The position numbers and the translations under genes were made by a program. Positions 50-13,652 of a stretch of DNA of 16,129 bases are shown here, in pieces (the stretch's first letter is position 1; the number at the start of each line of letters is the position of its first letter). Origin of the DNA: a virus. The notes under the pieces were generated by a model. The model was not told where the DNA came from. It searched no databases and worked only from the letters and a program-made list of their open reading frames with translations. The stretch is taken from UHGV virus genome UHGV-0120322; one strand, written 5' to 3'.

Positions 50-1213
50 TTACGCCTTCTTTATATCCTCCATAATTCCAGAGTGGGACATATTTGGGAC
101 ATTATCACCAAAAATGTCGTCTATTTTCCTCGCATGCTCTGTCAAATGATTAGGCGCAAGGTGAGCATACCTACGAACCATTTCTATGGACTCCCATCCG
201 CCCATTTCCTGAAGCACTGATAATGGGACGCCTGACTGAATCAGCCAGCTTGCCCAGGTGTGTCTGAGGTCATGGAAACGGAAATCTTCAATTCCTGCAC
301 GACGACAAGCTGATAGCCATGATGTCTTGCTGTCGATGCGCATCTTCCTGACCGCAGGCGTTGATGTTCCATCTGCTCGCTTAGCCGCCTTGGTATGTAC
401 AAACACCCATTTGTGATGCTTGCCTATTTGATCACGCAACACTTTACAGGCGGTATCGTTCAGCGCCACACCAATGGCGCGGTTTGATTTGCTCTCTTCT
501 GGATTCACCCAGGCAACTCGTCGCTGCATGTCGATTTGTTGCCATTCCAGATTTATGATGTTCGACTTTCTCAGACCAGTTGCCAGCGCAAACTTGACGA
601 CAGATTTCAGTGGTTCGGGGCACTCATCAATAAGGCGTTTTGCTTCCTCCTTTTCCAGCCATCTGACTCGCTTGTTTCTGACCGCTGGTATCTTGATGAC
701 AGGCGCTTTTTCCAGCCACTTCCAGTCGCGTTCTGCAGCACGGAGAATAGCCTTTATCATGGCAAGATGCTTTGCCTTTGTCTGAGTTGATACTGGCTTT
801 GGTTCATAAACAGGCAGTTCTTTACCTTTCCTGATGGCGGCCTGAACTTTCTGTTTCCATATTTCTTTCGTCTTTCTGTTATGCATTCTGCTTACAGCAG
901 AGTAAATCTTTGCCTCCGAGATATCTTTAAGCCTTATACCCTCAAAATGTTCAAGCCAGAACTCAATCCGGCTTTTATCTGAATCGAGAGATTTTTTATC
1001 AGCTTTTTCCTCAAGCCATCTTAGGCAGGCCTCTTCAAAAGTGACATCAGGTAAATCCCCTAGCTTTTCTACTCGCCAGAGTTCTGCTTTTCGCTTGTCG
1101 TGCAACTCCTGAGCTTGCCGCTTGTCCTTTGTGCCAAGAGATTCCTTAATTCGTTTCCCGCCCGGGAGCGAATACGAGGCATACCATATTTCATTTCTGC
1201 GGAAGAGTGACAT
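50..1213 (-). CDS. intD: Tyrosine site-specific integrase, P22/DLP12 type (387 aa)
   Basis: 387-aa ORF with C-terminal catalytic motifs (HDLRHTWAS...Y) typical of tyrosine recombinases; located next to tRNA-Arg; recognised as IntD-like. Confidence 0.95.
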
Positions 1214-1440
1214 TTTCTTTCCTCTGTTATGCCATCACCCGCGCTCACCTGGACAGTATGCAGCGGAGACTGAAGCGCCGCAATGCAGGCTTGCCGTGTT
1301 GTGAGGTAAGGAGATTTTGGCTTGGTTGGATCTTTACGTGTTGCCTGTAGGCGGCCTGTTCGTATCCAGTTGGTGGCGGTTGGTCTGGATATCTTAAGAA
1401 ACTGACAGGCCTCATCGAGTGTGAGGCTGTATGATTCCAT
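1069..1440 (-). CDS. xis: Excisionase (Xis), P22 type; start taken at [31 protein letters not shown], overlaps the 5' end of int
   Basis: N-terminal helix-turn-helix-like excisionase motif; position directly upstream of int on same strand; frame open to 1069 so 3' end overlaps int by about 145 nt; exact C-terminus uncertain. Confidence 0.6.
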
Positions 1441-1690
1441 GGTTACCTCTGCTTTTTGAACGCATGTCACGTAACTTCTTAATGTGTTCTGCCGTTTCGA
1501 TCTCTTCTGCTATCCGATCTGCATCAGCTTTATTCACAGGTTCAAAGTCATGATTAAAGCGGAACATGCTGGCGATACATGTTCTGCCTTTTCGGATGTA
1601 GTGAACTTTGTTGTGGGTAGAACGCAGGATTTTGCAGGGAGTGCCGTGGTGGTCGACGTACCAGGTGTTAGGGTAAATCACTCTGAACAT
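1412..1690 (-). CDS. Hypothetical small phage protein (92 aa)
   Basis: ORF in tight head-to-tail overlap with xis and the upstream gene, typical of phage early-left accessory operons; no family recognised. Confidence 0.5.
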   Translation of the reverse strand: MFRVIYPNTWYVDHHGTPCKILRSTHNKVHYIRKGRTCIASMFRFNHDFEPVNKADADRIAEEIETAEHIKKLRDMRSKSRGNHGIIQPHTR

Positions 1691-2003
1691 TCTTGACCTT
1701 GTGTTGTGCGGATTGATATTCAGTGCTGATATTCACCTTTATAGCGAACACCTTTACCGGTTTATCGCCAAAGTGTGGATGTGTGATTGTCTTCACTTCA
1801 TATCCGTCATACGGAACATCAATTCTGCGACTGGAATCGTCGCGCTTCGGATATCCCTTTGTGATAATCAGGCGGTCATACTCCCGGAACATAATTCGCT
1901 TATTCCAATAGTCATTACACAGGCGATACTCCTCCGTTTTCTCTCCGCGAATCATGGCATCGAAAAATTCACTTTTAACAGGAAGTTGCAGGTTAGCCAT
2001 CAC
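1668..2003 (-). CDS. Hypothetical phage protein (111 aa), possibly ASCH/PUA-like fold
   Basis: ORF with 4-nt ATGA overlap to the upstream TraR-like gene; motif FFDAMIRGEKTEEYR is reminiscent of ASCH-type domains (weak recognition only). Confidence 0.5.
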   Translation of the reverse strand: MMANLQLPVKSEFFDAMIRGEKTEEYRLCNDYWNKRIMFREYDRLIITKGYPKRDDSSRRIDVPYDGYEVKTITHPHFGDKPVKVFAIKVNISTEYQSAQHKVKNVQSDLP

Positions 2004-2221
2004 TTAATCCCCCTTTGTTTGCGGATAAGCTCCAGATCTTGCTGGCAACTGGCGCAAGTTCGACAACCCTGAACGGCTAGGCGTCTTCGTTCATCTATCG
2101 GATCACCACACTCACAACAATGAGTGGCAGATACAGCCAGGTGGTTCAGGCGGCGCATTTTTATTGCTGTGTTGCGCTGTAATTCTTCTATTTCTGATGC
2201 TGAATCAATGATGTCTGCCAT
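2000..2221 (-). CDS. TraR/DksA-family C4 zinc-finger protein (73 aa)
   Basis: CxxC...(17 aa)...CxxC spacing (CCECGDPIDERRRLAVQGCRTCASC) characteristic of TraR/DksA C4 zinc fingers; common in lambdoid early-left regions. Confidence 0.7.
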   Translation of the reverse strand: MADIIDSASEIEELQRNTAIKMRRLNHLAVSATHCCECGDPIDERRRLAVQGCRTCASCQQDLELIRKQRGIK

Positions 2222-2273
2222 CTTCCATTAATCCCTGAATTGTTGGTTAATACGCTTGAGGGTGAATGCGAAC

Positions 2274-2300
2274 AATAAAAAAGGAGCCTGTAGCTCCCTG
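2274..2300 (-). terminator. Candidate intrinsic terminator for leftward transcription (stem GGAGC/GCTCC followed by U-run on minus strand)
   Basis: Minus-strand reading CCTCAGGGAGCTACAGGCTCCTTTTTTATTG: GC-rich hairpin plus T6 tract, in the 98-bp gap between two minus-strand genes. Confidence 0.45.
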
Positions 2301-2319
2301 AGGATTTTGCTTTTCATGT

Positions 2320-2601
2320 TCACCGTTCCTTAAAGGCGCCGTTTAACATACCGATTGCCAGACTTAAATGAGTCGGTGTGAATCCCATCAGCGTTACCGT
2401 TTCGCGGTGCTTCTTCAGTACGCTACGGCAAATGTCATCGACGTTTTTATCCGGAAACTGCTGTCTGGCTTTTTTGATTTCAGAATTAGCCTGACGGGCA
2501 ATGCTGCGAAGGGCGTTTTCCTGCTGAGGTGTCACTGAACAAGCCCCATGTCGGCAAGCATAAGCACACAGAATATGAAGCCCGCTGCCAGAAAAATGCA
2601 T
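2320..2601 (-). CDS. Hypothetical protein at the lambda orf61 position (93 aa from first ATG; true start may be internal)
   Basis: ORF directly downstream of the orf63-like gene; Cys/His-rich N-terminus without clear RBS, so start uncertain (in-frame GTG at codon 23 is an alternative). Confidence 0.45.
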   Translation of the reverse strand: MHFSGSGLHILCAYACRHGACSVTPQQENALRSIARQANSEIKKARQQFPDKNVDDICRSVLKKHRETVTLMGFTPTHLSLAIGMLNGAFKER

Positions 2602-2611
2602 TCAGTGGTTG

Positions 2612-2803
2612 TCATACCTGGTCTCTCTCATCTGCTTCTGCTTTCGCCACCATCATTTCCAGCTTTTGTGAAAGGGATGCGGCTAACGTATGAAATTCTT
2701 CGTCTGTTTCTACTGGTATTGGCACAAACCTGACTCCAATTTGAGCAAGGTTATGTGCCATCTCAATACTCGTTCTTAACTCAACAGGAGATGCTTTGTG
2801 CAT
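2612..2803 (-). CDS. Lambda orf63-like small protein (63 aa)
   Basis: 63-aa ORF with strong SD (GGGAGG 5 nt upstream of ATG); same size and position (second gene downstream of exo) as lambda orf63. Confidence 0.6.
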   Translation of the reverse strand: MHKASPVELRTSIEMAHNLAQIGVRFVPIPVETDEEFHTLAASLSQKLEMMVAKAEADERDQV

Positions 2804-2964
2804 ACCGCCTCCCGTTTATTATTTATCTTCTCAGCCAGCCGCTGTGCTTTCAGTGGATTTCTGATAACAGAAAGGCCGGGAAATACCCAGCCTCGCTTTG
2901 TAACGGAGTAGACGAAAGTGATCGCGCCTACCCGGATATTATCGTGAGGATGCGTCATCGCCAT
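2776..2964 (-). CDS. Lambda orf60a-like small protein (62 aa), start overlaps the 3' end of exo
   Basis: ORF starting 10 nt inside the end of exo with GGGGAG SD-like sequence; position equivalent to lambda orf60a. Confidence 0.4.
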
Positions 2965-3635
2965 TGCTCCCCAAATACAAAACCAATTTCAGCCAGTGCC
3001 TCGTCCATTTTTTCGATGAACTCCGGCACCATCTCGTTAAAACTCGCCATGTACTTTTCATCCCGCTCAACCACGACATAATGCAGTCCTTCACGCTTCA
3101 TACGCGGGTCATAGTTGGCAAAGTACCAGGCATCTTTTTGTGTCACCCACATGCTGTACTGCACCTGGGCCATGTAAGCCGATTTTATGGCCTCGAAACC
3201 ACCGAGCCGGAACTTCATGAAATCCCGGGAGGTAAACGGGCATTTCAGTTCAAGGCCGTTGCCGTCACTGCATAAACCATCGGGAGAGCAGGCGGTGCGC
3301 ATACTTTCGTCGCGATAGATGATCGGGGATTCAGTAACATTCACGCCGGAAGTGAACTCAAAGAGGGCTCTGGCGTCGTTCTCGTACTGTTTTCCCCAGG
3401 CCAGCGCCTTAGCGTTAACTTCCGGAGCCACACCGGTGCAAACCTCGGCAAGCAGGGTGTGGAAGTAGGACATTTTCATGTCAGGCCACTTCTTTCCGGA
3501 GCGGGGTTTTGCTATCACATTGTGAACTTCTGAAGCGGTGATGACGCCGAGCCGTAATTTGTGCCATGCATCATCCCCCTGTTCGACAGCTCTCACGTCG
3601 ATCCCGGTACGCTGCAGGATAATGTCCGGTGTCAT
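2955..3635 (-). CDS. exo: Lambda exonuclease, Red-alpha (226 aa), full length
   Basis: Translation [40 protein letters not shown]... recognised as essentially identical to phage lambda Exo over its full length. Confidence 0.97.
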
Positions 3636-4417
3636 GCTGCCACCTTCTGCTCAGTGGCTTTCTGTTTCAGGAATCCAAGAGCTTTCACTGCTTCGGCCTG
3701 TGTCAGTTCTGACGATGCGCGAATGTCGCGGCGAAATATCTGGGAACAGAGCGGCAATAAGTCGTCATCCCATGTTTTATCCAGGGCGATCAGCAGAGTG
3801 TTAATTTCCTGCATGGTTTCATCGTTAACCGGAGTGATGTCGCGTTCCGGCTGACGTTCTGCAGTGTATGCGGTATTTTCGACAATGCGCTCGGCTTCAT
3901 CCTTGTCATAGATACCCGCAAATCCGAAGGCCAGACGGGCACACTGAATCATGGCTTTATGCCGTAACATCCGTTTGGGATGCGACTGCCACGGTCCGGT
4001 GATTTCTCTGCCTTCGCGGGTTTTGAATGGTTCGCGGCGGCATTCATCCATCCACTCGGTAACGCAGATCGGATGATTGCGGTCTTTGCGGTAAATCCGG
4101 CATGTGCAGGATTCGTTGTCCTGTTCAAAGTTCATGCCGTCAAACTGCTGGTTTTCGTTGATGATGCGGGACCAGCCATCAACGCCCACCACCGGAACGA
4201 TGCCGTTCTGCTTATCAGGGAAGGCGTAAATTTCTTTCGTCCACGGATTAAGGCCGTACTGGTTGGCGACGATCAACAATGCGATGAACTGCGCATCGCT
4301 GGCATCACCTTTAAATGCCGTCTGGCGAAGAGTGGTGATCAGTTCCTGTGGGTCGACAGAATCCATGCCGACACGTTCAGCCAGCTTCCCAGCCAGCGTT
4401 GCGAGTGCTGTACTCAT
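3632..4417 (-). CDS. bet: Lambda Bet, Red-beta single-strand annealing protein (261 aa), full length
   Basis: Translation [59 protein letters not shown]... recognised as lambda Bet; ATGA overlap with exo. Confidence 0.97.
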
Positions 4418-4422
4418 CCGTT

Positions 4423-4533
4423 TTATACCTCTGAATCAATATCAACCTGGTGGTGAGCAATGGTTTCAACCATGTACCGGATGTGTTCTGCCATGCGCTC
4501 CTGAAACTCAACATCGTCATCAAACGCACGGGT
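4423..4533 (-). pseudogene. gam: gam fragment: only the C-terminal ~36 codons of lambda Gam ([36 protein letters not shown]) are present
   Basis: C-terminal 36 aa match lambda Gam; the N-terminal 48 aa of the 84-aa ORF (4423..4677) are unrelated and encoded antisense to P; junction at about 4531-4534. Confidence 0.85.
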
Positions 4534-5137
4534 ACAACAGGTAGCGCAGATCATCAATGGTGTGTTCAGCCAGTTACTGGCAACTTTCCCGGCGAGCCTG
4601 GCTAACCGGGACCAGAACGAACTGAACGAAATCCGCCGCCAGTGGGTTCTGGCTTTCCGGGAAAACGGGATCACCACGATGGAACAGGTTAACGCAGGAA
4701 TGCGCGTAGCCCGTCGGCAGAATCGACCATTCCTGCCATCACCCGGGCAGTTTGTTGCCTGGTGCCGGGAAGAAGCATCCGTTACCGCCGGGCTGCCAAA
4801 CGCCAGCGAGCTGGTTGATATGGTTTACGAGTATTGCCGGAAACGTGGCCTGTATCCAGATGCAGAGTCTTATCCGTGGAAATCAAACGCGCACTACTGG
4901 CTGGTTACCAACCTGTATCAGAACATGCGGGCCAATGCGCTGACTGATGCGGAATTACGGCGCAAGGCTGCCGATGAACTGGCCTGTATGACAGCGCGAA
5001 TTAACCGTGGTGAGGCGATACCTGAACCAGTAAAACAACTTCCTGTCATGGGCGGGAGACCGCTTAATCGTGTTCAGGCTCTGGCGAAGATCGCAGAAAT
5101 CAAAGCGAAGTTTGGGCTGAAAGGAGCAAGTGTATGA
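4532..5137 (+). pseudogene. peaD: Replication protein P, 5'-truncated (lacks about the first 30-40 codons and its own start/RBS); equivalent to peaD of DLP12
   Basis: Frame translates as [30 protein letters not shown]...KAKFGLKGASV, matching lambda P from about residue 33 to the C-terminus; no ATG or SD at the 5' end. Confidence 0.9.
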
Positions 5138-5427
5138 CGGGCAAAGAGGCAATTATTCATTACCTGGGGACTCATAAGAACTTCTGTGCGCAGGACGTTG
5201 CCGCGGTAACAGGCGCAACAGTAACCAGCATAAATCAGGCTGCGGCTAAAATGGCGCGGGCAGGAATCTTGGTCATTGATGGTAAGGTCTGGCGAACGGT
5301 GTATTACAGATTCGCTACCAGGGAAGAACGGGAAGGAAAGGTGAGCACTAACCTGATTTTTAAGGAGTGTCGCCAGAGTGCCGCGATGAAGCGGGTGTTG
5401 ATGGTTTGGGGGAGGGTAGGGGTATGA
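5134..5427 (+). CDS. ren: Ren (lambda Ren homolog, 97 aa)
   Basis: MTGKEAIIHYLGTH...VTSINQAAAKMARAG...VWRTVYYRFATREEREGK recognised as lambda Ren; ATGA overlap with P stop. Confidence 0.9.
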   Translation: MTGKEAIIHYLGTHKNFCAQDVAAVTGATVTSINQAAAKMARAGILVIDGKVWRTVYYRFATREEREGKVSTNLIFKECRQSAAMKRVLMVWGRVGV

Positions 5428-5624
5428 GCATGATGGATTTCGCAGAAACTAAAAAGGCTATCGACGCCATCACAACCGACTGGTCTATCCGAGGACCGTA
5501 TCACGAAGACGACGGGAAATATTACGCCTTGCTTCGTGGAGAGTGGGTTGGTGGCGGGTATATCGGAAAACGGAAAGCCCTTGATGCCATTCTCGAAAAG
5601 TTAATCCAGGAGGCCGCCCAATGA
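5424..5624 (+). CDS. Hypothetical small phage protein (66 aa), nin-region equivalent
   Basis: ATG with GGGAGGGTAGGGG upstream, ATGA overlap with ren stop; in frame with ORF-track entry 5367..5624. Confidence 0.55.
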   Translation: MSMMDFAETKKAIDAITTDWSIRGPYHEDDGKYYALLRGEWVGGGYIGKRKALDAILEKLIQEAAQ

Positions 5625-5851
5625 GCAACATCGACAAACCAATGACAAACCGTGAACTGGTGGATGCCGCCATTGAATTGGCCGGAGAGTTTTATGCGAT
5701 GCAGGGCTATTCGCATCGTCCTGGCTTCAAGTATTGGCAATCTCCGCACCCGCATGAGCGCCTGTGCTTTGAAATGGCTTGTGTGGCATTCGAAACCATT
5801 CGCGGCTCAGATGTAATGGACGCCGTATCTGAGTTGGAGGATGAAGAATGA
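5621..5851 (+). CDS. Hypothetical small phage protein (76 aa), N-terminus MSNIDK
   Basis: AGGAGG SD 7 nt upstream, ATGA overlaps on both sides (translational coupling). Confidence 0.55.
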   Translation: MSNIDKPMTNRELVDAAIELAGEFYAMQGYSHRPGFKYWQSPHPHERLCFEMACVAFETIRGSDVMDAVSELEDEE

Positions 5852-5964
5852 GCAACATCGACAAACGCGCATTACGTGAAATCGCTGAGGCAGCAGTTGG
5901 TGCACATGAGCGCCTTAGTGTTATGCCGCCTGATGACATTTTCGATATCTCACTGGCAGAATGA
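5848..5964 (+). CDS. Short ORF (38 aa) with MSNIDK N-terminus; probably the N-terminal part of a larger gene interrupted by in-frame TGA at 5962-5964
   Basis: GGAGG SD 7 nt upstream of ATG; same reading frame as the 5965..6261 ORF, which has no SD or ATG of its own. Confidence 0.4.
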   Translation: MSNIDKRALREIAEAAVGAHERLSVMPPDDIFDISLAE

Positions 5965-5991
5965 ACTCAGCTTGATGCAGATATCACTGCC

Positions 5992-6261
5992 TTGAACGCG
6001 CTGAACTCCGCAGCCAACCCAGCCACAGTGCTGGCGCTGCTGGATGAGCTGGAAGCCAAAGACCAGAGGATTGCTGTGCTGACCGAATCGCTCAAGCAGA
6101 CGGTTTCAGGATACAAATCCTGCCTGCGTACCGGACATGAGCGCATTCTTGACCTTGGCGGTGACTGTGACGCGCCCAAAGTGATGATTGCAGGCAATCC
6201 TGACATTCAGCAGGCGCAGAAGCTGATCGCCGCCGCATCCGGTAAAGGAGAGGCATCATGA
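5992..6261 (+). CDS. Hypothetical phage protein, C-terminal part; frame open from 5965 and contiguous with 5848..5964 across a single TGA
   Basis: ORF-track entry with TTG start and no SD; 3' end overlaps the next gene start (ATGA), so it sits in a translationally coupled chain. Confidence 0.5.
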   Translation: MNALNSAANPATVLALLDELEAKDQRIAVLTESLKQTVSGYKSCLRTGHERILDLGGDCDAPKVMIAGNPDIQQAQKLIAAASGKGEAS

Positions 6262-6821
6262 GCACTATTACCAAACAATGGCTGCAGCAGAAAATTGCCG
6301 ACATGGAAGCAGCCAGAGATGAAATCCCGTTCGGTCTGGACGAAGGCGACAGCAACACGCTGGCGGCACTGCGTATCGCGCTGGCATCGCTCGAAGCGGA
6401 GCCTGCCATTCACCGGTGGCGTCGTGTGACCTCTGAGCCATACGGCCCCTATCCTTGGCATTATGGTGATTTTATCGGCTTCTCAAAGCCCGTTGATGGG
6501 ATTGAGGATGAGTATTTTTACTCCGCCCCGCCAGAGCCAGCCAATGCCGAAACCGTAGCCTGGCTGTGGTCACACAGGAAACACCCGAGCGAAGTCACGC
6601 TTGTTCGCCCTGAAGATGATGAGAGAGCGGAGGGTGCTCACTGGTCTGGCTGGAGTTGTCAGGCGCTTTATGCAGCACCGCCAGTTCCGGTATCTGTGCC
6701 CACATTCGAGAAATGGTGTGAGTTGACTGAGCAGAAACCTGTCGGATGGGTGCGTGATGCTATGAAAGAAGCGTATGACGGATGCCGCGACGCCATGCTT
6801 CAGGGTGCCGAAAAAGCCTAG
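6258..6821 (+). CDS. Hypothetical phage protein (187 aa)
   Basis: AAGGAG SD upstream of ATG; ATGA overlap with upstream ORF; no family recognised. Confidence 0.6.
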   Translation: MSTITKQWLQQKIADMEAARDEIPFGLDEGDSNTLAALRIALASLEAEPAIHRWRRVTSEPYGPYPWHYGDFIGFSKPVDGIEDEYFYSAPPEPANAETVAWLWSHRKHPSEVTLVRPEDDERAEGAHWSGWSCQALYAAPPVPVSVPTFEKWCELTEQKPVGWVRDAMKEAYDGCRDAMLQGAEKA

Positions 6822-6833
6822 TCGCCCACCACC

Positions 6834-7064
6834 ATGCAGACCGCGCCAGCCCTAGATTCTTCGCCAAAAATTTCCGAGTCGCCCGTCAGCAACTCTCCGG
6901 TGATTCCGGATGGTTGGGTGCTGGTTCCTAAGGAGCCAACTCCAGAAATGCGTGAGGCGTACCATCAGGCGCAGGAAGAGTGTGAAGATGGCGGTGGATT
7001 ATGGAGCCCAGACCACCAATGGAAGGCCATGATCGCAGCAGCACCGCAGCAGGAGGCGAAGTGA
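6834..7064 (+). CDS. Hypothetical ORF (76 aa) in the same frame as 6258..6821, separated only by a TAG and four sense codons; possibly a 3' extension of that gene
   Basis: No SD upstream of the ATG; same frame as the preceding gene. Confidence 0.4.
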   Translation: MQTAPALDSSPKISESPVSNSPVIPDGWVLVPKEPTPEMREAYHQAQEECEDGGGLWSPDHQWKAMIAAAPQQEAK

Positions 7065-7115
7065 TTATGTCGTGACAGCATAATTGCGATGTCAACGATA
7101 AGCAGAGGTTTGAAA

Positions 7116-7310
7116 ATGAAATCACAATCACCAGTGCAGCATGAAGTTAACATCGACGGCAAAGAGTATGTTGTCACAGTAGTCCAAACCGGCAAGTCAA
7201 CGTGGAGGGCATGGGGAGATTCCTGGGGGCGCCATATAGTCGAAACAGGTTCTAGCGAACATAGCGCGCTTTCTCATTGGAAAGCAAAAGCTTTAGTTAT
7301 GAATGGGTAG
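7116..7310 (+). CDS. Hypothetical small protein (64 aa), start at MKSQSPVQ
   Basis: GAGGT SD 6 nt upstream of ATG at 7116; the earlier ATG at 7089 has no SD. Confidence 0.5.
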   Translation: MKSQSPVQHEVNIDGKEYVVTVVQTGKSTWRAWGDSWGRHIVETGSSEHSALSHWKAKALVMNG

Positions 7311-7333
7311 CGCGGAAACTTTGAAGGTATAAT

Positions 7334-7359
7334 CCCCTCAAATAATCGAGGGGGTTTTT
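7334..7359 (+). terminator. Hairpin CCCCTC-N8-GAGGGG followed by TTTTT; intrinsic terminator or attenuator immediately abutting the next start codon
   Basis: GC-rich 6-bp stem plus T5 run; a perfect TATAAT hexamer sits at 7328-7333 just upstream; the 3' arm doubles as the only SD-like sequence for the 7360 ATG. Confidence 0.5.
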
Positions 7360-7869
7360 ATGTCTGGTTGGGATAACGGTATAGATGCAGTTTCTGCGAT
7401 TGCAGCTATCGCATCTGCGGTAGCAACTTATTTAGCATGGCGATCCTCAGAAGCTAGCAGGGCCACATCCGAAAAAGCTTTGCAGTTGCAAGGAAAGCAG
7501 TATTTGTACGAGACATTAAAAGCTTGCGCTGAGAGAGCGAATTCATACTCAAAAGGAAAGAAAGGGGCTGACTGGAGCTTTCATGACGCAGCCAATATTG
7601 TTCGATGTTTGAACATGGCAATGGGGAGCATAATAAATTACTCAGATACCAACAATCAGGATGCAATGAAAGGTCTGAAGCAATTCTTTATTAGCCAATT
7701 AAACATGGAGCTTTTTGAAGAGCTCAACTATGAGGTTGGGCCTGATGCCTTCTTTCACGGAGAGGAGCTAACCAGCATGACGAGCGATATTTACTCGCAG
7801 TGGTTAAACATTATTTCATTCTTTAACCTCATGATTGTCACAGATGATGACCTCGCCGATGAAACATAG
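7360..7869 (+). CDS. Hypothetical AT-rich moron protein (169 aa) with an N-terminal hydrophobic helix (IDAVSAIAAIASAVATYLAW)
   Basis: Long ORF with visibly lower GC than the flanking nin genes, its own upstream hairpin and TATAAT; no family recognised. Confidence 0.65.
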   Translation: MSGWDNGIDAVSAIAAIASAVATYLAWRSSEASRATSEKALQLQGKQYLYETLKACAERANSYSKGKKGADWSFHDAANIVRCLNMAMGSIINYSDTNNQDAMKGLKQFFISQLNMELFEELNYEVGPDAFFHGEELTSMTSDIYSQWLNIISFFNLMIVTDDDLADET

Positions 7870-10118: not shown

Positions 10119-11201
10119 TTAGAACTGGTAAACCATACCTACAGCAACGATATCATCGGTAGCAACGCCAGATGCTTTCGTGAAATCGCTCTTATCAATC
10201 AGGTTGATTTTGTAGTCAACAAAAGTGGACATATTTTTGTTGAAGTAATAGGTTGCACCTACATCAACATATTCAACCAGGTCCTGATCACCCCAAACAC
10301 CCAAGTCTTTTCCTTTAGAATGCAGGTAAGCAACGGATGGACGCAGGCCGAAGTCGAACTGATATTGTGCAACAGCTTCGAAGTTTTGTGCTTTGTTGGC
10401 AATATGGTTATTACCAAAAACAGTCATGTTCTGGGTTTCAGAATAGGTGGTGGCCAGATAGATGTTGTTCGCATCATATTTCAGACCAGCTGCCCATACT
10501 TCAGCATTTTGACCAGAAGCATTCAGACCGTTGTTACCGTAGATAACCTGATTATTAGTGCGATCAGATTTAGCATAGGTTGCACCCACGCCGAATCCTT
10601 CATACTCATAAGTAGTTGAGAAACCGAAACCATCGCCATTAGCTTCAGTTACTTCTTTTCGGTCATTTTTGCCCTGATACTGAGCTGCAAAGTTCAGGCC
10701 ATCAACCAGACCAAAGAAGTCGTTGTTACGATAAGTTGCAACACCTGTGGTGCGACCAGTCATGAATACATCTGTTTGGGTCCAGGTATCGCCACCGAAT
10801 TCTGGCAGAACGTCGGTCCATGCACCAATATCGTATGCTACACCGTAGTTACGGCCATAATCGATGGAGCCGTAGTCACCGAATTTCAGGCCAGCGAAGG
10901 CAAGACGGGTTTTATCTTTGGAGGAACCTTGAGATTCAGCGCGGTTGCCTTTGAATTCATATTCCCACTGACCGAAACCAGTCAGTTGATCGTTGATTTG
11001 GGTTTCACCTTTGAAGCCAAGACGGGCATAAGTAGTATCACCATCATCTGCATCATTAGAGGAGAAGTAGTGCTTAGCATTAACTTTCCCGTACAGATCC
11101 AGCTTGTTACTGTCTTTATTATAAATTTCAGCTGCCTGAGCAGACATCGCCATCAGTACTGATGCAGCTACAGCAGAAATTGCCACTGTTAATTTTTTCA
11201 T
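10119..11201 (-). CDS. nmpC: Outer-membrane porin, OmpC/NmpC (Lc) family, intact (360 aa with signal peptide [23 protein letters not shown])
   Basis: Classic general-porin sequence ending in the C-terminal aromatic residue (...VGMVYQF); encoded antisense between Q and the lysis genes as in DLP12/PA-2. Confidence 0.95.
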
Positions 11202-13014: not shown

Positions 13015-13163
13015 ACATCTGAATTTCACAGCGCATCTCACGCGCATATTACATCACCCGAGCCTTTCAGAAAGTTGAGCCTGAGAACTGCCGTATATGG
13101 TGGCGACCATCTCGGGGCGGCTTTTCTGTGAGACAGGCTCACTTTCTAAAAGGTAAAGACGCT

Positions 13164-13652
13164 ATGAACCAATTAGAAGAAAAGCTTCAAAGAATGATTT
13201 CCTTATACAAGGAAGATAACTGCCAAAAAGTTCCTGAAAACATCGCAGAGTTAATGGAATTGGCAAGTGAATTTTCTGGCATGCTTAAGTCGTCAGGTGT
13301 TCGGTCAGCGTTCTTTGTTGAAATGCTGATGCACGGCGGACTTATGGCAACAATGAGACGTGTAATGGAAGACCAGAGAAAAGAACCTCCTCAGGTATAC
13401 GTTTTGTCATCGAAGAAAACTGGGCTAACCAAAATTGGGTATTCATCCAACATTCCACAACGCATCAAATCGCTTGGCAACTCTGGACCAGACTGCTTGA
13501 AGCTTGAGTGCCTGATCCCTGGTGGAAGAGAAACTGAAAACATGCTTCATCGCAAATTTGCCGCAAAGAGAAAGCACGGTGAATGGTTCGCCCTGTCCAA
13601 GGATGACATTGAGGGATTGAAATCTGTAGCGATTACTTCTGATGGCTATTAA
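13164..13652 (+). CDS. GIY-YIG superfamily / T5orf172-domain protein (162 aa): helical N-terminal region plus C-terminal T5orf172-like nuclease-fold domain
   Basis: C-terminal motifs VYVLSSKKTGLTKIGYSSN ... R ... E ... GEWF match the T5orf172 (GIY-YIG-like) pattern; AAGG SD; sits where lambda carries bor; lower GC than the lysis genes. Confidence 0.7.
   Translation: MNQLEEKLQRMISLYKEDNCQKVPENIAELMELASEFSGMLKSSGVRSAFFVEMLMHGGLMATMRRVMEDQRKEPPQVYVLSSKKTGLTKIGYSSNIPQRIKSLGNSGPDCLKLECLIPGGRETENMLHRKFAAKRKHGEWFALSKDDIEGLKSVAITSDGY

Follow-up and report, generated by a model that had tools for sequence, protein, structure and literature searches.

The gene at 2000-2221 of UHGV virus genome UHGV-0120322 raises two questions. 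These are what its small product is, and whether this particular copy is able to act on the transcription of the host. The window, which is the whole stretch of 16,129 nucleotides that was analysed, had been described in an earlier note as carrying a TraR/DksA-like zinc-finger gene within a compact accessory operon. The gene is an orthologue of lambda orf73, its product would bind RNA polymerase (RNAP) and not DNA with a TraR-like mechanism, and the copy in the window is most likely silent or weakly transcribed. This joint reading is considered highly probable. The gene, the family, the mechanism, and even a structural model are all already in the literature and are thus already known. The sole non-trivial addition of the present analysis is the probable orphaned state of this copy. 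The features of the region are as follows.

1412-1690, minus strand: DUF4222 gene (PHROG 285), 92 aa, with a 23-nt overlap with the 110-aa gene
1668-2000, minus strand: 110-aa gene (PHROG 625), which occupies the place of lambda ea22
2000-2221, minus strand: orf73 orthologue, a predicted 73-aa TraR-family RNAP secondary-channel factor (from profiles, alignment, and predicted structure)
2228-2323, minus strand: 31-codon ORF, which stops 6 nt before the orf73 ATG (compare phage 21 CPT_21_39)
2281-2299, minus strand: intrinsic-terminator-like hairpin with a GGAGC-3 nt loop-GCTCC core and then T6, just upstream of orf73
2320-2601, minus strand: orf61 homologue, full-length, 93 aa
2612-2803, minus strand: orf63 homologue (DUF1382)
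2776-2964, minus strand: orf60a homologue (DUF1317)
2955-3635, minus strand: exo, an upstream gene in the same leftward transcription unit as orf73
3632-4417, minus strand: bet, an upstream gene in the same leftward transcription unit as orf73
4423-4533, minus strand: 3' remnant of gam (last ~37 codons), joined at the junction 4533/4534 to the interior of P on the other strand
Lambda (L001) 2893-3114, minus strand: lambda orf73 ORF, unannotated in NC_001416

The gene is an open reading frame of 73 codons on the minus strand, from ATG to TGA, and its product is MADIIDSASEIEELQRNTAIKMRRLNHLAVSATHCCECGDPIDERRRLAVQGCRTCASCQQDLELIRKQRGIK. This product is identical to RefSeq WP_000763362.1, a 'TraR/DksA family transcriptional regulator' from the prophage of E. 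coli LR-25. A profile search for the TraR/DksA C4 family, which had been proposed as a check, gave matches to Pfam PF01258 (zf-dskA_traR; 36.0 bits against a gathering score of 24.9, E=6.8e-9) and to PHROG 54, 'DksA-like zinc-finger protein' (E=1.8e-25, 1-70 of 75 positions covered). The NCBIfam model TIGR02419 (phage/conjugal plasmid C-4 type zinc finger protein, TraR family) gave 56.0 bits, slightly below its curated cut-off of 59.7. The NCBIfam DksA/TraR equivalog models gave scores far below their cut-offs. In a search of PDB sequences, the product was aligned over its full length to F-plasmid TraR chains (5W1S and 6N57), and the zinc domain of YbiI was also aligned. By these matches, the gene is a genuine TraR/DksA-family C4 zinc-finger gene, as the earlier note had proposed. 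Its product falls within the TraR family and, more narrowly, among the orthologues of lambda Orf73. With no coiled coil and only half the length of DksA, it is not counted as DksA proper.

The identity of the gene becomes clearer in a comparison with lambda. The lambda reference (NC_001416) has no annotation between ea22 and orf61, yet a 73-codon ORF is present there. Lambda Orf73 and the product of the window are identical at 67 of 73 positions (92%) with no gaps. The two genes differ at 19 of 222 nt, which amounts to nine synonymous and six non-synonymous codons, and codons 1-27 are identical. The six replacements (Q28L, I30V, V49A, E61Q, S67R, and S72I) are all outside the hallmark residues and would be expected to leave activity unchanged. 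Both proteins have six cysteines, at positions 35, 36, 38, 53, 56, and 59. The synteny is also that of lambda, with exo, orf60a, orf63, orf61, and orf73 on the same strand, and the interval from orf61 to orf73 has a mean column identity of ~95% with lambda. The gene of this exo-xis block is lambda's own orf73, so it does not count as a new accessory gene. The conserved block described in the literature is orf60a-orf63-orf61-orf73-ea22. In the window the next gene is not ea22, which bears on the block and not on the orthology of orf73.

The hallmarks of TraR and Orf73 have been listed by Gopalkrishnan et al. 2022 (PMC9239242) and Donaldson 2021 (PMC8614690). They are a DxxDxA motif, a CxxC-17-CxxC zinc site, equivalents of TraR R48 and R49, an ExxRK/ExxRL motif, and an acidic residue in the C-terminal helix; two extra cysteines are a hallmark specific to Orf73. 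TraR R48 contacts the beta' rim helices and R49 contacts beta'Si3 (PMC9239242, PMC8614690). In the product of the window, DxxDxA is found as D3-I-I-D6-S-A8 and is aligned with D3, D6, and A8 of TraR. The zinc site is made up of C35, C38, C56, and C59, and a spacer of 17 residues separates C38 from C56. The four cysteines align with TraR C37, C40, C58, and C61. C36 and C53 are the extra cysteines. R46 and R47 align with TraR R48 and R49, and E64 aligns with E66. The ExxRL motif is E44-R-R-R47-L48, in which E44 is kept relative to TraR (E46). A search of 5.8 billion proteins supplied 33 homologues for an alignment. D6, A8, C35, C53, C56, and C59 are invariant in it, D3, C38, R46, and R47 are conserved in at least 90% of members, and C36 is freely variable. 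Loss of the four-cysteine spacing had been named as a finding that would speak against the family, and the spacing is kept both in the alignment with TraR and in that of the 33 homologues. Every functional hallmark of TraR and Orf73 is thus retained at the sequence level.

The predicted fold is consistent with this assignment. An AlphaFold2 model built on the 33-homologue alignment reaches a pLDDT of 81.6 and shows a long helix (5-27), a zinc knuckle (33-56), and a C-terminal helix (57-69). When it was compared to the PDB with Foldseek, the top two matches were RNAP-bound TraR chains, 6N57_M (E=5.2e-4, prob 1.00) and 5W1S_M. These were followed by YbiI, DksA, and DksA2. DksA chains were aligned to the model only in part (TMt ~0.3).

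What the protein can do has been established with lambda Orf73. The purified protein inhibits rrnB P1 with an IC50 of ~50 nM, which is equal to that of TraR, and does so without ppGpp; rpsT P2 is also inhibited without ppGpp (PMC9239242). Lambda Orf73 and DksA compete for RNAP in an Fe2+-cleavage assay, and the D3N and D6N variants lose most of their activity (PMC9239242). With pL driving lambda Orf73 from a defective prophage, rrn leader RNA fell to 29% and rpsT mRNA to 45%. When it was expressed from pBAD, they were down 14-fold and 7-fold, respectively (PMC9239242). Host growth is slowed by Orf73, and inactivation of orf73 by point mutations or an in-frame deletion made the induced phage yield 3-4-fold lower (PMC9239242). 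Activation of thrABC, argI, and rpoH P3 is weak if it occurs at all, and the lambda lytic promoters that were tested were unchanged by Orf73.

By analogy, the product of the window most likely binds in the RNAP secondary channel and inhibits rrnB P1 independently of ppGpp. This mechanism is taken from the TraR structures and from the experiments on the 92%-identical lambda Orf73. The N-terminal helix would enter the secondary channel, with DxxDxA (D3, D6, and A8) near the active site. The Zn-ribbon domain (C35/C38/C56/C59) would sit on the beta' rim helices via R46 and touch beta'Si3 via R47, and the C-terminal helix (E64) would meet the beta lobe/Si1. The resulting conformational change would destabilise short-lived open complexes. 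Promoters for rRNA and ribosomal proteins could in this way be turned off without ppGpp, and host growth would be slowed and resources made available to phage production. In an intact phage, orf73 would be transcribed early from pL, and antitermination would presumably be needed to pass the hairpin just upstream of the gene. The DksA-like action on RNAP that had been suggested for this gene is thus supported, by analogy, by the competition of lambda Orf73 with DksA and by its inhibition of rRNA and ribosomal-protein promoters (PMC9239242).

The genes around orf73 are those of the leftward operon. The 31-codon ORF upstream is probably the counterpart of lambda orf2313, which was seen by ribosome profiling and has the same length and position. 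The orf61 homologue is present in its full length of 93 aa, and lambda orf61 is shortened to 61 aa by one additional A in an A-run. Downstream, the orf73 TGA and the next ATG share one base, an A, in TGATG. Because of this overlap, the start of the 110-aa gene is best placed at 2000 and not at the GTG at 2003. The annotations of phage 21 and ev207 start this gene likewise, with the same placement as 1668-2000. The ORF that had been given as 1668-2003 therefore exists, but with a likelier start at the ATG.

The function class of PHROG 625, the family of the 110-aa product, is unknown. The product has no meaningful match in Pfam (up to E=10), NCBIfam, or PDB sequences. Its relatives are named 'ASCH domain-containing protein' by NCBI. 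The best, though weak, PDB matches of its AlphaFold2 model (pLDDT 80.7) are ASCH-domain proteins, namely 3IUW (E=0.04, prob 0.91), 1XNE, and 5GUS. An ASCH/PUA-like fold is plausible for this protein on the basis of the model. Together, the 110-aa gene and the DUF4222 gene sit where lambda has ea22 and ea8.5. The three-gene module that they form with orf73 was found at a coverage of at least 80% in 593 of 5,426 complete E. coli genomes, and some DNA matching the module is present in about two-thirds of them. PADLOC assigned neither orf73 nor its neighbours to a defence system.

This arrangement alters part of what had been said of the gene's surroundings. The small genes do overlap tightly, as described, by one base and by 23 nt. 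The two that were said to flank orf73 are both downstream of it, on the xis side. They do not form a separate compact accessory operon with orf73; all of these genes lie at the end of the long early operon that runs leftward. The supposed distinctness from the lambda ea genes holds for the two downstream genes. It does not hold for orf73, which is lambda's own, and the arrangement is already found in phage 21 and ev207.

The sequence of the window is that of a prophage of the DLP12 type, and it sits at argU, a tRNA-Arg site. Its integrase gene (50-1213) is named intD in related genomes. The right part contains ren, a ninB-like gene (ybcN in LR-25), rusA, the Q antiterminator, and a porin gene, as well as P21-type holin, lysozyme, and Rz genes. 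No match was found in the window with Rfam at the gathering threshold or with ARAGORN. The nearest complete relative is the prophage of E. coli LR-25, with 98.9% identity over 81% of the window. Between bet and P, the LR-25 prophage has gam, kil, a BamE-like gene, an S24 repressor, a cro-like regulator, a YdaT-domain gene, and a replication gene.

The window has lost this segment. The deletion junction was located by reading the window and LR-25 sequences and by a pattern search. Positions 4380-4533 of the window are colinear with 5880-6033 of the LR-25 locus, and the alignment then jumps to ~10337 of LR-25, inside P. Pfam agrees: of Gam, the ORF at 4423-4677 covers no more than the final 38 positions, and the ORF at 4562-5137 matches P truncated at its N-terminus. 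About 4.3 kb from gam to P are absent, including the repressor, cro, the O/replication initiator, and the early leftward promoter region. Other, independent gam-P deletions exist in E. coli, as for example in strain 2015C-4136CT1.

The deletion bears directly on whether orf73 can be expressed. Early expression from pL is a feature of the group that the window lacks; the gam-P segment that carries the early promoters in LR-25 is missing. A consensus scan of 1000-7590 gave no minus-strand sigma-70-like site at threshold, although transcription may come from weak or non-sigma-70 promoters or from read-through. One candidate promoter upstream of orf73 that was noticed by eye, TTGTTC-17-TATTAA, has a match of only 7/12 and was dismissed. 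The stem of the hairpin at 2281-2299 is shared without change by lambda, phage 21, and LR-25. The hairpin may correspond to the lambda tL3 terminator. The orf73 copy of the window is judged to have kept its coding capacity and to have lost its native expression signal. It is probably orphaned, and silent or weakly transcribed, because the early leftward promoter went with the deletion, as did the repressor, cro, and O. The proposal that the gene could modulate host transcription thus stands for the capacity of the protein and is doubtful for this copy, whose early control region is deleted.

One account of this state is that orf73 is an unexpressed relic, intact only since the gam-to-P deletion is recent, which is useless to the host and will decay. 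This account is slightly favoured. The early control region is gone, the scan gave no promoter-like minus-strand site upstream, and a terminator-like hairpin lies right before the gene. The 912-bp three-gene module has 100% DNA identity to copies in other E. coli prophages, which suggests little time for divergence. The exact gam/P junction was not found in the 5,426 complete E. coli genomes. DLP12 of E. coli K-12 has already lost the whole exo-xis block and keeps only intD, xisD', exoD', peaD', and renD. However, every reading frame in the window from the DUF4222 gene through bet is still uninterrupted, low-level transcription is common for cryptic-prophage genes, and expression cannot be given by sequence alone. 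The account touches only the expression state and is compatible with the identity of the protein as an Orf73 orthologue.

The physiology of Orf73 is itself disputed, as one group has described a pro-lysogenic role with a lower phage yield and another a higher yield. It has also been tied to host replication, since an older study linked the orf73-ea22-ea8.5-orf55 cluster to a block of it. The main role of orf73 could then be to bias the choice between lysis and lysogeny, or to block the initiation of host replication (the 'bin' phenotype of this cluster), and not to increase the burst. Deletion of orf73 in lambda and Phi24B led to lower survival and lower lysogenisation in the literature, and dnaA promoters are inhibited in vitro at high Orf73 (IC50 0.4-1.7 uM). 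A single-copy prophage hardly changed dnaA mRNA, though, and non-polar point mutants cut phage yield 3-4-fold. In addition, the partners ea22, ea8.5, and orf55 are absent downstream of orf73 in the window. Such a main role is therefore regarded as rather unlikely.

The extra cysteines allow for another possibility. The Orf73 subfamily could be a redox-sensitive variant of TraR, in which the extra cysteines, notably C53, alter zinc ligation or form disulfides. C53 is invariant in 33 of 33 subfamily members and is a Val in TraR, and C36 is variable. The exo-xis region has been tied to peroxide-induced induction of Stx prophages (PMC4699033). The canonical CxxC-17-CxxC ligands are all there, though, and purified Orf73 inhibits as well as TraR, so that redox control appears improbable. 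Capture by the host is a still more speculative reading. Here, with phage control lost through the gam-to-P deletion, a weak or stress-responsive host-type promoter would drive orf73 as a ppGpp-independent brake on ribosome synthesis, perhaps redox-sensitive via Cys53, and the gene would be a domesticated phage TraR that benefits the bacterium and not the phage; little credence is given to this. That the gene is spurious, or encodes a generic DNA-binding zinc ribbon, was rejected as next to impossible. Short ORFs with CxxC...CxxC do occur often, and unrelated zinc knuckles are numerous in the Foldseek list at E>0.5, but the product has full-length profile matches including PHROG 54, aligns with TraR, has TraR as its Foldseek match, is 92% identical to a protein shown to bind RNAP, and has the N-terminal DxxDxA helix that generic zinc ribbons lack.

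The Orf73 orthology has its main use in annotation, and a suitable label for the gene is 'lambda Orf73-like TraR-family RNAP-binding regulator'. Of wider interest is the survival of an intact, potent growth-inhibitory regulator in a prophage without a repressor and an early promoter. If it is expressed, a phage host-takeover factor would be at work in a cryptic prophage.

Among the closest known systems is lambda Orf73 (alias Orf2310). It has the same length, the same hallmarks (DxxDxA, ExxRL, and E64), and the same place after exo-orf60a-orf63-orf61, and lambda also has a 31-codon ORF and a terminator-like hairpin before orf73. The two differ downstream, where lambda has ea22 and ea8.5 and the window has the ASCH-like and DUF4222 genes. 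They differ also in context: unlike in lambda, orf73 of the window is in a defective DLP12-type prophage at argU without the early promoter region.

Phage 21 and ev207 are closer in sequence. A search with the surrounding 1.8 kb matched 361 phage records, with identities of ~94% for lambda-like isolates and 96-97% for phage 21 and ev207. The proteins of phage 21 (CPT_21_38) and ev207 (gp36) are one residue (H27Y) from the product of the window, and both phages have the same three-gene module of orf73, the 110-aa gene, and DUF4222. The DUF4222 gene is 79 aa in phage 21-type relatives and 92 aa in the window, because homology to phage 21 stops near 1461 of the window. Phage 21, ev207, and LR-25-type prophages retain gam, kil, and the immunity region, which the window is without.

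F-plasmid TraR (5W1S and 6N57) is the best structural match, even though only 32% of residues are identical. It is of the same length class and also has a single N-terminal helix, a C4 zinc domain, and a C-terminal helix, and its key residues D3, D6, A8, C37/40/58/61, E46, R48, R49, and E66 are all matched in the protein of the window. TraR differs from Orf73 in that it has four cysteines and not six, is encoded in a conjugation operon, and activates several promoters, whereas Orf73 activates weakly if at all. E. coli DksA (1TJL, 5VSW, and 7KHI) has the PF01258 C4 domain, the RNAP site, and the class of target promoters in common with the protein of the window. At ~150 aa it is about twice as long, its acidic DxxDxA tip is borne by a coiled coil, and it is fully active only with ppGpp. 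The protein of the window, with 73 aa and a single helix, belongs in the ppGpp-independent TraR branch.

The product of orf73, the TraR-family zinc-finger gene at 2000-2221 on the minus strand, contains two cysteines that can be regarded as extra to its C4 motif. Of these, C53 is invariant in the Orf73 subfamily (33 of 33 aligned proteins), whereas the F-plasmid protein TraR has valine at this position. The other, C36, varies freely (C/I/S/E/G/A/V). This pattern of conservation suggests that C53 has a conserved role, for example as an alternative zinc ligand or in a redox function.

Two genes of the same module follow orf73. The first is listed here.

1668-2000, minus strand, gene for a 110-aa protein with weak ASCH/PUA-like resemblance in its AF2 model

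No match to this protein was found in Pfam, NCBIfam or PDB sequences. In its AF2 model (pLDDT 80.7) there is a weak likeness to ASCH/PUA-like domains, with 3IUW (prob 0.91), 1XNE and 5GUS as the matches. The last ~15 residues are modeled with low confidence, and the homologues, which are 93-114 aa long, vary in length at this C-terminal end. The second gene, a DUF4222 ORF, has its C-terminal part at 1412-1470 on the minus strand. It encodes 92 aa in the window and in the related prophage of E. coli LR-25, but 79 aa in phages 21 and ev207. Nucleotide homology to these two phages ends near 1461, and the C-terminal tail therefore comes from the DLP12-specific int-xis segment. The DUF4222 gene thus contains an intragenic mosaic joint.

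The int-xis segment and the attachment site contain the following.

1069-1470, minus strand, excisionase-like ORF (full profile of PHROG 2907, E=4e-46; HTH_17 domain)
1-49, left edge of the window, with argU (tRNA-Arg) in the first ~34 bases (3' end only, placed from the colinear LR-25 locus)

The excisionase-like ORF and the integrase gene have 145 nt in common. In its place, the PGAP annotation of LR-25 has no more than a pseudogene fragment of 63 nt, and xisD of K-12 is labelled a pseudogene. The argU gene is the prophage attachment site. ARAGORN did not call its 3' end in the window because the rest of the gene lies beyond the window edge.

The early region has been disrupted by a deletion of ~4.3 kb. 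Within 4423-4700, what is left of gam (its final ~37 codons, minus strand) is joined at 4533/4534 to the interior of the replication gene P (plus strand). The LR-25 prophage still has what is lost here: kil, the genes for the repressor and the replication initiator, cro, and the early promoters. This exact junction was not found in 5,426 complete E. coli genomes. Independent gam-P deletions are present in other prophages.

The right part of the window carries additional genes.

5992-6261, plus strand, short Ead/Ea22-like ORF to the right of ren (Pfam match, E=2.6e-11)
6258-6821, adjoining 187-aa ORF matching only PHROGs of unknown function
10119-11201, minus strand, porin gene of the OmpC/NmpC type, full-length (Porin_1, E=3e-152)
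13128-13652, plus strand, GIY-YIG/T5orf172-type protein after the lysis genes (MUG113 and T5orf172 domains, PHROG 4284)

In lambda, ea22 is kept far from the place of the Ead/Ea22-like ORF. The porin gene, on the opposite strand, has the Q antiterminator gene on one side and the lysis cassette on the other, which is the classic DLP12 moron position. The GIY-YIG/T5orf172-type protein gives a weak hit (E=8e-6) to PDC-S57, a candidate defence family of PADLOC.

The region just upstream of orf73 can be compared with lambda and phage 21.

2228-2323, minus strand, 31-codon ORF whose stop is 6 nt before the orf73 start
2281-2299, minus strand, conserved intrinsic-terminator-like hairpin with a T6 tract, inside the 31-codon ORF
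2320-2601, minus strand, continuous 93-aa orf61 homologue (PHROG 303)

In both length and position, the 31-codon ORF matches lambda orf2313, known from ribosome profiling. The hairpin (MFE -10.6 kcal/mol, z = -1.7) may correspond to tL3 of lambda. The orf61 homologue of phage 21 is likewise continuous and 93 aa long. The apparent truncation of lambda Orf61 relative to Stx phages is already in the literature; its A-run is one A longer than that of the window (AAAAAAA versus AAAAAA), and this extra A cuts the lambda protein to 61 aa.
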